6,795 bases of DNA. It comes from a plasmid. The stretch is from assembly GCF_053078305.1 (NCBI RefSeq), contig NZ_CP166876.1; one strand, written 5' to 3'. The position numbers were made by a program, and so were the translations under genes. Positions 1,407 to 6,267 of the stretch are shown piece after piece. The notes below the pieces were generated by a model. The model did no database searches, was not told the DNA's origin, and was given only the letters and a program-made list of their open reading frames with translations. Each line of letters opens with the position of its first letter. Position 1 is the stretch's first letter.

Positions 1407-1489
1407 TTTGTGACTCCGTGCGCGGTGAAAAATCGCATTTTAGCGCGTCACTGGTAGTTGCAAAACCGAACTGGCATAATGCACGGCAC

Positions 1490-1545
1490 ATCACGAAGTG
1501 CGCACTTATACAATCTCCACTTCGTTTCGATTGTGTGCGCCCTGC
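1490..1545 (+). other. Candidate origin of transfer (oriT) with MOBQ-type nick region
   Basis: It lies in the intergenic region between the divergent mobC-like and mobA genes. It contains a perfect 12-bp palindrome 'aagtgcgcactt' (1496-1507), an inverted repeat 'acgaagtg' (1493-1500) / 'cacttcg' (1518-1524), and 'gtgcgccct' (1535-1543), which matches the RSF1010/R1162 nick region (TAAGTGCG/CCCT). The inferred nick is between 1539 and 1540. Confidence 0.5.
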
Positions 1546-1584
1546 GGGGCTGAAAGAAAACGGCAAAAAGGCATTACGGCAGAA

Positions 1585-3842: not shown

Positions 3843-3866
3843 GGGCCACAAAATTTTTTGTGGCCC
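3843..3866. terminator. GC-rich hairpin downstream of mobA (possible terminator)
   Basis: Palindrome 'gggccac aaaatttttt gtggccc' has a 7-bp GC-rich stem with an A/T loop, located 39 bp after the mobA stop. There is no clean T-run after the stem, so terminator function is uncertain. Confidence 0.35.
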
Positions 3867-3923
3867 GCTCTGCGTTTTCTAAGTGTTATCCCTCCTGATT
3901 TCTAAAAAATTTTCCACCTGAAC

Positions 3924-3952
3924 TTGACAGAAAAAACGATGACGGGTACTTT
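3924..3952 (+). promoter_or_regulatory. Putative colicin promoter (-35 TTGACA; -10 region uncertain)
   Basis: A perfect -35 hexamer 'ttgaca' at 3924-3929 lies upstream of the LexA boxes and about 110 bp upstream of the colicin ATG. The best -10 candidate about 17 bp downstream ('tacttt', 3947-3952) is weak, so exact promoter elements are uncertain. Confidence 0.5.
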
Positions 3953-3957
3953 TTGAT

Positions 3958-3988
3958 CTGTACATAAAACCAGTGGTTTTATGTACAG
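3958..3988 (+). promoter_or_regulatory. Overlapping dual LexA (SOS) boxes of a colicin operon
   Basis: The sequence 'ctgtacataaaaccagtggttttatgtacag' contains a first box CTGTACATAAAACCAG (3958-3973) and a second box overlapping its last base and ending in ACAG at 3988. This is the characteristic tandem overlapping SOS operator found upstream of colicin genes (CTGT-N8-ACAG type). Confidence 0.9.
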
Positions 3989-4036: not shown

Positions 4037-5707
4037 ATGAGCGGTGGCGATGGACGCGGCCATAACACGGGCGCGCATAGCACAAGTGGTAACATTAATG
4101 GTGGCCCGACCGGGCTTGGTGTAGGTGGTGGTGCTTCTGATGGCTCCGGATGGAGTTCGGAAAATAACCCGTGGGGTGGTGGTTCCGGTAGCGGCATTCA
4201 CTGGGGTGGTGGTTCCGGTCATGGTAATGGCGGGGGGAATGGTAATTCCGGTGGTGGTTCGGGAACAGGCGGTAATCTGTCAGCAGTAGCTGCGCCAGTG
4301 GCATTTGGTTTTCCGGCACTTTCCACTCCAGGAGCTGGCGGTCTGGCGGTCAGTATTTCAGCGGGAGCATTATCGGCAGCTATTGCTGATATTATGGCTG
4401 CCCTGAAAGGACCGTTTAAATTTGGTCTTTGGGGGGTGGCTTTATATGGTGTATTGCCATCACAAATAGCGAAAGATGACCCCAATATGATGTCAAAGAT
4501 TGTGACGTCATTACCCGCAGATGATATTACTGAATCACCTGTCAGTTCATTACCTCTCGATAAGGCAACAGTAAACGTAAATGTTCGTGTTGTTGATGAT
4601 GTAAAAGACGAACGACAGAATATTTCGGTTGTTTCAGGTGTTCCGATGAGTGTTCCGGTGGTTGATGCAAAACCTACCGAACGTCCAGGTGTTTTTACGG
4701 CATCAATTCCAGGTGCACCTGTTCTGAATATTTCAGTTAATAACAGTACGCCAGCAGTACAGACATTAAGCCCAGGTGTTACAAATAATACTGATAAGGA
4801 TGTTCGCCCGGCAGGATTTACTCAGGGGGGTAATACCAGGGATGCAGTTATTCGATTCCCGAAGGACAGCGGTCATAATGCCGTATATGTTTCAGTGAGT
4901 GATGTTCTTAGCCCTGACCAGGTAAAACAACGTCAGGATGAAGAAAATCGCCGTCAGCAGGAATGGGATGCTACGCATCCGGTTGAAGCGGCTGAGCGAA
5001 ATTATGAACGCGCGCGTGCAGAGCTGAATCAGGCAAATGAAGATGTTGCCAGAAATCAGGAGCGACAGGCTAAAGCTGTTCAGGTTTATAATTCGCGTAA
5101 AAGCGAACTTGATGCAGCGAATAAAACTCTTGCTGATGCAATAGCTGAAATAAAACAATTTGAACGATTTGCACATGACCCAATGGCTGGCGGTCACAGA
5201 ATGTGGCAAATGGCCGGGCTTAAAGCTCAGCGGGCGCAGACGGATGTAAATAATAAGCAGGCTGCATTTGATGCTGCTGCAAAAGAGAAGGCAGATGCTG
5301 ATGCTGCATTAAGTACTGCGATGGAAAGCAGGAAGAAGAAAGAGGATAATAAAAGAGATGCTGAAGGCAAACTAAATGATGAGTTAGCAAAAAATAAAGG
5401 AAAGATACCAGGTCTAAAAATAGATCAGAAAATTAGGGGACAAATGCCAGAAAGAGGATGGACAGAGGATGATATCAAAAATACCGTATCTAACGGTGCA
5501 ACTGGTACATCTTTTGATAAGCGTAGTCCGAAGAAAACACCTCCAGACTATTTAGGTCGAAATGATCCAGCAACAGTGTATGGTTCTCCTGGTAAATATG
5601 TTGTTGTCAATGATCGTACTGGTGAGGTTACTCAGATTAGTGATAAGACAGATCCGGGTTGGGTGGACGATTCGAGAATTCAATGGGGAAATAAAAATGA
5701 CCAATAA
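4037..5707 (+). CDS. cea: E-group colicin (BtuB/Tol-dependent); C-terminal cytotoxic domain most consistent with E5-type anticodon tRNase
   Basis: 556-aa ORF with an AGAGGG ribosome-binding site upstream. The glycine-rich N-terminal translocation domain carries the TolB box DGSGW at residues 35-39 (nt 4139-4153), as in colicins E2/E3/E9. The central region is the long coiled-coil receptor-binding domain typical of E colicins. The C-terminal ~105 residues (KIPGLKIDQKIRGQMPERGW...WGNKNDQ) have no HNH motif and no histidine, which argues against the E2/E7/E8/E9 DNases; I do not recognise it as the E3 rRNase either, and it fits my recollection of the histidine-free E5 tRNase domain. It is preceded by the SOS operator and followed by immunity and lysis genes. 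Confidence 0.93.
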   Translation: MSGGDGRGHNTGAHSTSGNINGGPTGLGVGGGASDGSGWSSENNPWGGGSGSGIHWGGGSGHGNGGGNGNSGGGSGTGGNLSAVAAPVAFGFPALSTPGAGGLAVSISAGALSAAIADIMAALKGPFKFGLWGVALYGVLPSQIAKDDPNMMSKIVTSLPADDITESPVSSLPLDKATVNVNVRVVDDVKDERQNISVVSGVPMSVPVVDAKPTERPGVFTASIPGAPVLNISVNNSTPAVQTLSPGVTNNTDKDVRPAGFTQGGNTRDAVIRFPKDSGHNAVYVSVSDVLSPDQVKQRQDEENRRQQEWDATHPVEAAERNYERARAELNQANEDVARNQERQAKAVQVYNSRKSELDAANKTLADAIAEIKQFERFAHDPMAGGHRMWQMAGLKAQRAQTDVNNKQAAFDAAAKEKADADAALSTAMESRKKKEDNKRDAEGKLNDELAKNKGKIPGLKIDQKIRGQMPERGWTEDDIKNTVSNGATGTSFDKRSPKKTPPDYLGRNDPATVYGSPGKYVVVNDRTGEVTQISDKTDPGWVDDSRIQWGNKNDQ

Positions 5708-6026
5708 ATTATTTGAACATACGGTGTTATATGATAGTGGTGATGCCTTTTTTGAATTAAAAGGAAATGCTTCTATGAAGTTATCACCAAAAGCTGCAAT
5801 AGAAGTTTGTAATGAAGCAGCGAAAAAAGGCTTATGGATTTTGGGCATTGATGGTGGGCATTGGCTGAATCCTGGATTCAGGATAGATAGTTCAGCATCA
5901 TGGACATATGATATGCCGGAGGAATACAAATCAAAAATCCCTGAAAATAATAGATTGGCTATTGAAAATATTAAAGATGATATTGAGAATGGATACACTG
6001 CTTTCATTATCACGTTAAAGATGTAA
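5697..6026 (+). CDS. Colicin immunity protein (cognate inhibitor of the C-terminal nuclease domain)
   Basis: 109-aa ORF (MTNKLFEHTVLYDSGDAFFELKGN...) whose ATG at 5697 overlaps the colicin stop codon (5705-5707), the typical translationally coupled position of nuclease-colicin immunity genes. The six-frame ORF begins at 5562, but that extension lies wholly inside the colicin reading frame and is rejected. The gene is AT-rich like the cytotoxic domain. Confidence 0.85.
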   Translation: MTNKLFEHTVLYDSGDAFFELKGNASMKLSPKAAIEVCNEAAKKGLWILGIDGGHWLNPGFRIDSSASWTYDMPEEYKSKIPENNRLAIENIKDDIENGYTAFIITLKM

Positions 6027-6123
6027 ATAGTGTTATAGAATTTTATGTTTCATGGATGATTTCAACCTTTGGATTTCAGGTTTTTATGGATGAATGCCTG
6101 AGTCCATATATACAAGGAACAGT

Positions 6124-6267
6124 ATGAAAAAAATAACATGGATTATTTTATTGCTTCTTGCAGCCATTATTCTTGCTGCATGTCAGGCAAACTATATCCG
6201 CGATGTTCAGGGCGGGACTGTATCCCCGTCATCCTCAGCTGAACTGACCGGATTAGCAACGCAGTAA
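6124..6267 (+). CDS. Colicin lysis / release lipoprotein (bacteriocin release protein)
   Basis: Translation by hand gives the 47-aa protein [47 protein letters not shown], with a lipoprotein signal peptide and lipobox LAAC. It is nearly identical to the E-group colicin lysis proteins as I recall them. It is absent from the ORF track because it is short. A ribosome-binding site 'aaggaa' lies upstream. Confidence 0.9.

Follow-up and report, generated by a model that had tools for sequence, protein, structure and literature searches.

Between the divergent mobC-like and mobA genes of a small E. coli plasmid, a perfect palindrome and an inverted repeat stand close to a sequence that resembles the nick site of RSF1010. 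An earlier note, made from the letters alone, read these elements as an origin of transfer (oriT) of the RSF1010/MOBQ type, with the inverted repeat as the recognition hairpin and the nick at GTGCGCCCT on the plus strand. The locus raises two questions: is it an oriT, and, if so, which strand is cut, at which base and beside which hairpin? The window, by which we mean the whole stretch of DNA analysed, is a plasmid of 6,795 bp that matches the E. coli O111:H- plasmid pO111-110512_4 (NZ_AP019765) at 100%. It encodes a ColE2-type replication protein (Pfam Replicase and PriCT_1, PF03090 and PF08708), a mobC-like gene, a MobA/MobL relaxase and a colicin E5-type operon; with its ColE2-type replicon, colicin E5 operon and divergent mobC/mobA, the plasmid is placed in the MOBQ42 group. 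The location between the two divergent genes was as the earlier note described it, and the features discussed below are collected in Table 1.

Table 1. Features of the mobC-mobA region, in window coordinates (a slash in the text marks a cut site).
Feature	Position	Strand	Basis or remark
mobC-like accessory gene, 88 aa	1140-1406	-	divergent from mobA; annotation of relatives
mobC-mobA intergenic region, 178 bp	1407-1584	.	experimentally delimited oriT region of MOBQ4 plasmids
promoter-like site toward mobC: TTTGCA, 16-nt spacer, TAAAAT	1437-1464	-	match to consensus only
possible extended -10 TGgCATAAT for mobA	1472-1480	+	putative, from sequence only
conserved oriT core	1490-1560	-	sole part common to relaxase-less small plasmids
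minus strand, 1539 to 1490: CGCACACAATCGAAACGAAGTGGAGATTGTATAAGTGCGCACTTCGTGAT	1490-1539	-	
inverted repeat of the earlier note, ACGAAGTG and CACTTCGT	1493-1525	.	right arm within hairpin 1 loop
palindrome AAGTGCGCACTT	1496-1507	.	nick core and its 3' flank
predicted nick core 5'-ATAAGTGCG-3'	1501-1509	-	homology; followed by CACTT (1500-1496)
hairpin 1, nick-proximal arm ACAATC	1510-1515	.	pairs with 1529-1534 in 13/13 family sequences
hairpin 1, mobA-side arm GATTGT	1529-1534	.	13-nt loop, 1516-1528
mirror of nick core: GTGCG on plus strand, CGCAC on transferred strand	1535-1539	.	first part of GTGCGCCCT
hairpin 2, CCC-TGC-GGG	1540-1548	.	GTC-TGC-GAC in pO111_4 and relaxase-less copies
mobA, MOBQ4 relaxase, 739 aa	1585-3804	+	ATG at 1585; Pfam MobA_MobL

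The relaxase encoded beside the locus is of the MOBQ class. MobA matched Pfam MobA_MobL (PF03389, E = 2e-70), and its closest solved relaxases in the PDB were NES of pLW1043 (4HT4, E = 1.7e-30) and MobA of R1162 (2NS6, E = 3.5e-11). Residues Y25, E87, E89, H125, H133 and H135 are present at the positions named in PMC6856555, and the window protein thereby carries the catalytic tyrosine and three-histidine motif, with the MobA_MobL fold, by which MOBQ relaxases are recognized. A Pfam search with the 88-aa mobC-like protein returned no match, and its relatives carry the annotation "relaxase accessory protein MobC."

The function of this region is already known from close relatives. The MOBQ4 family, which includes ColE9-J and pO111_4 (MOBQ42) and pE2022_4 and pIGWZ12 (MOBQ41), was described by Garcillan-Barcia et al. 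in 2019 (PMC6856555). According to the accessible text of that study, the 178-bp gaps of a MOBQ41 plasmid and of a ColE9-J-like MOBQ42 plasmid, which differ from each other at 10 of 178 positions, were cloned into a non-mobilisable vector (pRC7/pRC8), and, with MobA and an IncI helper present, the cloned oriT was mobilised at an efficiency 500 to 1,000 times below that in cis. The same text reports a cis preference of MOBQ4 relaxases, a mobC that stimulates transfer and is dispensable, IncI-type helpers as the best in mobilisation tests, and two oriT fragments, 1-70 and 71-178, that are each inactive (PMC6856555). The window has the arrangement that marks an oriT of this family, namely a mobC product shorter than 100 aa divergent from mobA and a gap of exactly 178 bp, and it shares with the published plasmids the relaxase residues, the ColE2-type Rep and a colicin operon, the toxin being of the E5 type in the window versus E9 in ColE9-J. 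Compared with ColE9-J (NC_011977), the reference for the tested plasmid pRC2, which here stands in for the tested isolate HUMV 04/979, the gap differs at 13 of 178 positions, and just one of these, loop base 1517, lies inside the core at 1490-1560. We counted 13 differences from a MOBQ41 plasmid and six to seven from pRHB13-C14_5 and pO111_4. This is high identity to the tested oriTs, and no functional difference from them is visible in the sequence. The proposal of an RSF1010/MOBQ-type oriT is supported, and the cloning of the 178-bp gap that the earlier note suggested as a check had already worked for family relatives; the oriT call appears correct, being established in near-identical plasmids and extended by homology to pO111-110512_4 itself. 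It adds nothing new in its own right, given that the family oriT was cloned and tested in 2019 and the core is essentially the same sequence. The accessible text of PMC6856555 delimits the oriT region and gives no nick or hairpin anatomy, and we found no nick mapping for the MOBQ4 family in the accessible literature.

What, then, marks the site of the cut? We considered how often the noted elements would arise by chance in a first-order Markov simulation of the window. The 12-bp palindrome is perfect, as noted earlier; 1.8 such palindromes would be expected from the length and composition of the window, which has two. The inverted repeat is also real, and its right arm, given as seven bases, is longer than described: a loop of 17 nt separates ACGAAGTG (1493-1500) from CACTTCGT (1518-1525), and the two pair perfectly over 8 bp. 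A total of 3.4 inverted repeats of 8 bp with a 3- to 30-nt loop are expected in the window by chance. On these expectations, neither the palindrome nor the repeat is significant alone. The nonamer GTGCGCCCT is present at 1535-1543, 9 nt past the repeat, as its only copy in the window (0.08 expected, both strands), and AAGTGCGC (0.29 expected) occurs solely within the palindrome. The repeats are therefore not the signal at this locus; the signal lies in the sequence of the MOBQ nick core and in where it stands. For the locus as a whole, chance is ruled out by the uniqueness, placement and conservation of that core.

Two sites in the core resemble a MOBQ nick site, and they lie on opposite strands. 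The nick consensus of Francia (2004), as quoted in PMC3832669, is NWACCNNTAAGTGCGCCCTYNN, of the TAAGTGCG/CCCT type. On the minus strand, ATAAGTGCG/CACTT agrees with TAAGTGCGCCCT at 11 of 12 positions; the second base after the nick is A versus C in the consensus, which is a point against this site. The plus-strand GTGCGCCCT fits only the 3' nine bases of the same consensus. Conservation also centers on the minus-strand site. The block GCGCACTTA at 1500-1509, which reads TAAGTGCGC on the minus strand, is invariant across six mobA-bearing plasmids. We further aligned the regions upstream of the relaxase gene, with that gene on the top strand, from the window, two MOBQ41 plasmids, pSC101, an IncQ1 plasmid, and Enterobacter, Klebsiella, Sphingobium and Bacillus plasmids. 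In this alignment GC(G/C)CACTTA (1500-1509; TAAGTG(C/G)GC on the other strand) was the sole block kept throughout, from E. coli to Sphingobium and Bacillus.

The orientation of this block relative to the relaxase gene speaks to the strand. We scanned 100,044 species-representative genomes for GCGCACTTAYRCAAWCT and obtained at least 120 loci. Among the matches listed, 82 had a MobA-like open reading frame, which lay directly downstream of GCGCACTTA and in the same orientation in 72 of the 82. In all of eight further plasmids a nick-like motif was found on the strand antisense to the relaxase gene. Together with RSF1010, pSC101 and pSK41, these loci argue for an orientation rule by which the consensus nick TAAGTGCG/C is antisense to the relaxase gene. 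The minus-strand site has this orientation toward mobA and the plus-strand site does not. The cut is thus most likely on the minus strand at 5'-ATAAGTGCG/CACTT-3', between 1501 and 1500, and inside the palindrome of the earlier note. An A as the second base after the nick makes the palindrome perfect in the window and in B. mycoides p78; most relatives have the flank CCCTT, with which the symmetry falls to 10 of 12. A plus-strand cut within the palindrome (GAAGTGCG/CACTTA, between 1502 and 1503) was rejected, being on the wrong strand and having no hairpin 5' of the cut.

MOBQ oriTs carry a hairpin 8 to 9 nt from the nick, and hairpin 1 of the window ends 9 nt before the predicted cut. We evaluated pairing in a family alignment of 13 sequences, consisting of six mobA-bearing plasmids and seven relaxase-less plasmids. 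Three helices were counted: hairpin 1, its GTGCG/CGCAC extension, and CCC-TGC-GGG (1540-1542 with 1546-1548). All 182 of 182 cells were paired and three pairs were changed on both sides, a result reached by none of 500 shuffles. One of these changes is in hairpin 1, where T1514/A1530 becomes A/T in 5 of the 13 sequences, and the other two are in hairpin 2 of pO111_4 and the relaxase-less copies. Among mobA-bearing relatives, the core changes only in the hairpin 1 loop, at compensated pairs, or at 1552. Covariation of the hairpin 1 arms was also seen in 114 to 115 distinct sequences from diverse bacteria among the matches listed, although these sequences are related to one another and represent few independent events. 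The exact 6-nt right arm was present in 69 of 115 related sequences, compared to 1.6% by chance; the arm ACAAAC was accompanied by GTTTGT in 11 cases and GTTTGC in 3, GCAAAC by GTTTGC in 56 and GTTTGT in none, and ACAATC by GATTGT in 2 (all among the matches listed). Because the nick core and the left arm were both set in the scan pattern, the scan is no test of those parts. Among the matches listed, 67% of related oriTs had a second hairpin, perfectly paired over 5 bp or more, after the first, versus 17% of shuffles. Folded as single-stranded DNA, the minus strand is predicted to form a single long stem interrupted by an ATAA bulge (-12.7 kcal/mol, z = -2.06). The hairpin 1 stem of just 6 bp, with its long, 13-nt loop, is a point against the minus-strand reading.

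The plus-strand reading of the earlier note, with a nick at GTGCG/CCCT (between 1539 and 1540) and ACGAAGTG and CACTTCGT as the recognition hairpin, has real points in its favor. The exact match of GTGCGCCCT to the RSF1010 nick core is unique in the window, its first five bases (1535-1539) are invariant in the 13 relatives, and pSC101 and a Malikia locus have the same string in the same place. Against it, RSF1010 and pSK41 have their mapped or assayed sites on the other strand, 72 of the 82 related loci listed have the opposite orientation, and the site lacks TAA and lies 5 nt, not 8 to 9 nt, from the conserved hairpin. The bases that would follow the cut vary. pO111_4, which bears mobA, and all seven aligned relaxase-less copies read GTGCGGTCTGCGAC, and the changes from CCCT to GTCT are exactly those that keep hairpin 2 paired, indicating selection for pairing over a cut site. 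The proposed hairpin fares no better: over the 13 relatives 88.5% of its cells were paired, there were zero compensatory changes, 5 of its 8 pairs were broken in some relative, and it is absent from pSC101. The repeat is probably not a selected structure, and we regard the plus-strand reading as very unlikely. The earlier note was partly supported, being right on the kind of element and wrong, as we read the locus, on nick, strand and hairpin. We read GTGCGCCCT as the mirror arm of the nick core joined to the first arm of hairpin 2 and not as a cut site.

Comparison with characterized MOBQ oriTs is consistent with the minus-strand assignment. In RSF1010, the oligonucleotide CAGTTTCTCGAAGAGAAACCGGTAAGTGCG/CCCTCCC (TAAGTGCG/CCCT) is cleaved in vitro by the MobA relaxase domain (PMC4814116, Table 1). 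On an IncQ1 plasmid with an identical oriT, which we used in place of RSF1010, the cleaved strand has the sense of mobC and is antisense to both mobA and mobB. The window shares with RSF1010/R1162 the nick core TAAGTGCG/C, the divergent mobC/mobA, the nick strand antisense to mobA, and a hairpin upstream of the nick, which is 8 nt away in RSF1010/R1162. RSF1010/R1162 differs in its 10-bp hairpin arms, a MobA fused to primase, a relaxase that is efficient in trans, and a mirror-like GTGCGCTCT that lies about 40 nt beyond the hairpin, whereas the mirror adjoins the hairpin in the window. The mobA-antisense strand of pSC101 reads GTCTAAGTGCGCCCT, ...AGAAAGTCTAAGTGCGCCCTGAT. On its mobA-sense strand the order is the same as in the window: (A/G)GGCGCACTTA, a hairpin with CACTTCGTT in its loop, GTGCGCCCT, a short G+C-rich hairpin, and mobA. 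pSC101 differs by its arms CTTTCT/AGAAAC, CCCT after the nick, a more distant relaxase, and other accessory genes (MobX).

The oriT strand CACGCGAACGGAACGTTCGCATAAGTGCGCCCTTAC of pSK41 is antisense to nes. NES is said to cut exactly after GTGCG in the 2013 work of Edwards et al. In pSK41/pLW1043, whose NES is the closest solved relaxase to the window MobA, the hairpin is followed by ATAAGTGCG and then C, a 10-nt stretch identical to the window; in both, GCAC stands immediately 5' of the hairpin and the nick strand is antisense to the relaxase gene. pSK41 is a Gram-positive conjugative plasmid and differs in its hairpin, GCGAACG-GAA-CGTTCGC (7 bp, 3-nt loop), and in CCCTTA after the nick; NES works well in trans (as cited in the accessible text of PMC6856555).

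Collectively, we consider it very likely that 1490-1560 is the oriT core of a mobilisable MOBQ42 (ColE2-type, colicin E5) plasmid and that the minus strand is nicked between 1501 and 1500 and transferred. Read 5' to 3' from the mobA side, the transferred strand would present the GGG/CCC hairpin (1548-1540), CGCAC (1539-1535), the main hairpin (1534-1510; ACAATC, a 13-nt loop and GATTGT), and ATAAGTGCG/CACTT. MobA, with Tyr25 and its three-histidine metal site, would bind the main hairpin at its base, together with the single-stranded ATAAGTGCG; Tyr25 would cut between G1501 and C1500 and remain attached to the 5' end at C1500. The secretion system of a helper plasmid would then export the minus strand, 5' end first, such that mobC would enter the recipient first and mobA last, and the hairpin and nick core would be recognized again as the circle is closed. 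Autoregulation of the mobA promoter and a role for hairpin 2 in this process may also be envisaged. The published fragments can be compared with this model in two ways. If they were numbered from mobA, the split falls between 1514 and 1515, inside hairpin 1, which fits the minus-strand model. If they were numbered from mobC, the split falls between 1476 and 1477, and the inactive 71-178 fragment would hold the entire core; in that case either 1407-1476 would also be required, or the trans assay, already weak, would have been at its detection limit.

We considered that, instead of being recognized by the relaxase, the hairpins could serve mainly as a promoter or operator of mobA, as a 5' untranslated leader, or as a signal for priming of the lagging strand. 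The string CATAAT noted earlier is present at 1475-1480, the TG and CATAAT are kept in all six mobA-bearing plasmids, and a -10 for mobA at 1472-1480 is plausible, if putative; it would place the whole core in the mobA leader. Many relatives have hairpin 2 placed between the nick hairpin and mobA, and rolling-circle plasmids that bear a relaxase-less copy need a single-strand origin, a role that the core may have in such plasmids. The consensus promoter scan called no -10 in the mobA direction, where the -35 was poor, and found one site, directed toward mobC, versus 0.2 expected. A scan of the whole window against Rfam at the gathering threshold returned no family. The relaxase-less copies keep both compensated hairpins with no mobA to regulate, and the core accompanies replicons of four or more unrelated types (ColE2, Rep_3, ColpVC and Col(MP18)). 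Moreover, these roles could coexist with that of an oriT and are mostly additions to it, not replacements. As the main function of the hairpins, such roles seem to us highly improbable. A double-strand origin of rolling-circle plasmids was rejected, given that the core occurs with unrelated replicon types, theta included.

All 13 family sequences have the mirror of the nick core unchanged. As CGCAC it lies directly 5' of hairpin 1 on the transferred strand, where it can pair with 1501-1505 around the ATAA bulge. Among the matches listed, GTGC was found 0 to 3 nt after the hairpin in 82 of 105 related oriTs. Among individual plasmids, pSC101, pYAN-1 and a second ColE2-type Salmonella plasmid carry the mirror, and pSK41 carries it as GCAC; neither B. 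mycoides p78 nor L. plantarum p9 has one. Where the nick core varies, the mirror tracks it, as in Enterobacter (GTGGG/CCCAT), Klebsiella (CGGG/CCCG) and Psychrobacter (CCGCG/CGTGG). This pattern would be expected if both mirror sites were cut, with inverted nicks flanking one hairpin so that either strand could be transferred, but recognition by one enzyme would also yield it. Such a two-way oriT also draws on the fact that both strands read a hairpin and then GTGCG/C, and on Ruminococcus loci with a near-complete mirror, GTTTGT-AAGTGCGCC. However, in most relatives, as in the window, the mirror has no (A)TAA spacer, while the spacer is in every assayed substrate; the two plasmids without the mirror also stand against this idea, the bases 3' of the mirror are free to vary if pairing is kept, and we came across no MOBQ oriT reported to be nicked on both strands. 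We judge cutting at both sites to be most improbable. Under the preferred model of a single minus-strand nick, the mirror might act through base pairing or as a second protein contact.

The core is also found apart from the relaxase. An 80-bp core search returned 672 plasmid records, eight of them typed as conjugative, and MobA at 60% identity or higher was found in about 535. The difference, about 135, consists mostly of plasmids of 1.5 to 2.7 kb that carry a rolling-circle rep gene alone, with no relaxase; their replicons are of the ColpVC and Col(MP18) types or belong to an untyped group. Their match to the window is confined to 1490-1560, with 81 to 94% identity. The nick core, both hairpins (compensated) and the mirror are retained, which argues that the relaxase-less copies are functional. 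In the one strain checked, E. coli RHB13-C14, a MOBQ42 plasmid and a relaxase-less copy occur together. Functional relaxase-less copies sit uneasily with the reported cis preference of MOBQ4 relaxases.

The plasmid pBuzz illustrates this arrangement. It has a core homologue at 738-806 of its sequence (L005), between two perfect 84-bp inverted arms. According to the accessible literature, its two published oriTs are these 84-bp inverted copies of the B/O (IncI-complex) type (Moran and Hall 2019, cited in PMC9282650 and PMC7448864). The published oriTs have the nick ACATCCTG/T, and the MOBQ4-like core lies between them; the arms, at L005 489-572 and 827-910, are separate from the window-like segment. 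pBuzz-type plasmids resemble the carriers of the window core in being tiny and Rep-only, with oriT copies used by a relaxase supplied in trans. Given that pBuzz is mobilised by a B/O plasmid, an oriT of the IncI/B/O (MOBP) type was considered for the window and rejected: in such an oriT ACATCCTG/T follows a NikA-binding repeat, ATCCTG is absent from both strands of 1407-1584, the pBuzz arms are distinct from the shared segment, and conjugative plasmids make up only the eight noted above among the 672 records with the core.

In summary, relying on an exact GTGCGCCCT match leads to the wrong strand at this locus, and the orientation rule and covariation together identify the likely cut site and recognition hairpin. 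This correction of the strand matters for the design of nicking substrates and for automatic oriT annotation. The leads that remain, the conserved mirror arm and the relaxase-less copies, are modest. The mirror may be a general, undescribed part of the MOBQ class of oriTs, and pBuzz-type plasmids may carry a third oriT of the MOBQ4 type; both readings are tentative, and we think them rather unlikely. If the first is true, the mirror would pair with GTGCG around the bulged (A)TAA and place the cut site at the foot of an interrupted 11-bp stem or cruciform base, where it could gate access of the relaxase. If the second is true, pBuzz-type plasmids would be movable by the relaxase of a helper or by that of a co-resident colicin plasmid, despite the cis preference. 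The presence of the core on about 135 relaxase-less plasmids bears on what share of the small plasmids of E. coli and Salmonella now regarded as "non-mobilisable" may in fact be mobilisable.

The plus strand of the plasmid has only three copies of the GTGCGC motif, all of them within the 178-bp gap between mobC and mobA. The first copy adjoins the start of mobC.

An oriT of the same type is found in Ruminococcus and related contigs (L029, L031, L049, L052, L053, L073, L082 and L083), where, instead of preceding the relaxase gene, it follows the gene's 3' end at a distance of about 110 nt. In these contigs, the nick region has a near-complete mirror copy, GTTTGT-AAGTGCGCC. A second small ColE2-type plasmid, Salmonella p1618-3 (L141; Col156 replicon), has the same oriT layout as the window, in the order GCGCAC, ATGTTTCT, loop, AGAAACAT, ATAA and GTGCG|CTTCC, although its MobA/MobL is distant (29% identity).

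Beyond mobA, a strong hairpin (GGGCCACAAAA/TTTTTTGTGGCCC) lies 40 nt past the stop codon and has A and T runs on both sides, an arrangement that looks like a two-way terminator. We take CTGTACATAAAACCAGTGGTTTTATGTACAG to resemble the paired LexA (SOS) boxes of a colicin promoter, and TTGACA is present about 30 nt upstream. Such paired boxes are typical of colicin promoters and ordinary for a colicin operon. The G+C content then drops to 36 to 39%, compared to 50 to 60% in the rest of the window, over a stretch that takes in the nuclease domain of colicin E5, the next open reading frame downstream (annotated as "colicin transporter") and the lysis gene, suggesting from composition that this module was acquired separately.

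Coordinates of the features discussed
Feature	Replicon	Position	Strand
GTGCGC, first copy (CCGTGCGCGG)	window	1418-1423	plus
GTGCGC, second copy	window	1498-1503	plus
GTGCGC, third copy	window	1535-1540	plus
oriT core (70 bp)	window	1490-1560	
Hairpin 2	window	1540-1548	
Hairpin past mobA	window	3843-3867	
TTGACA	window	3925-3930	
LexA-box-like CTGTACATAAAACCAGTGGTTTTATGTACAG	window	3958-3988	
Low-G+C region	window	5250-6250	
oriT core homologue	pBuzz	738-806	
B/O-type oriT arms	pBuzz	489-572, 827-910	

The homologue of the 70-bp oriT core is all that Rep-only plasmids of 1.5 to 2.7 kb share with the window, and about 135 relaxase-less records in PLSDB carry it (for example, L002, L003, L004, L006, L007, L137 and pBuzz [L005, NZ_MF156267]). 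The one strain examined for co-residence, E. coli RHB13-C14, holds a MOBQ42 plasmid with mobA (L138, CP055728) together with a relaxase-less bearer of the core (L137, CP055735; 2275 bp). In pBuzz, the core homologue is flanked by two 84-bp inverted B/O-type oriT arms. The mobA-bearing sister plasmid pO111_4 (L145, NC_013367), from a different O111:H- strain, reads GTC-TGC-GAC at hairpin 2 compared to CCC-TGC-GGG in the window. Given that this variant is also present in relaxase-less core copies, the shared sequence suggests that oriT segments have been exchanged between mobA-bearing and relaxase-less plasmid types.
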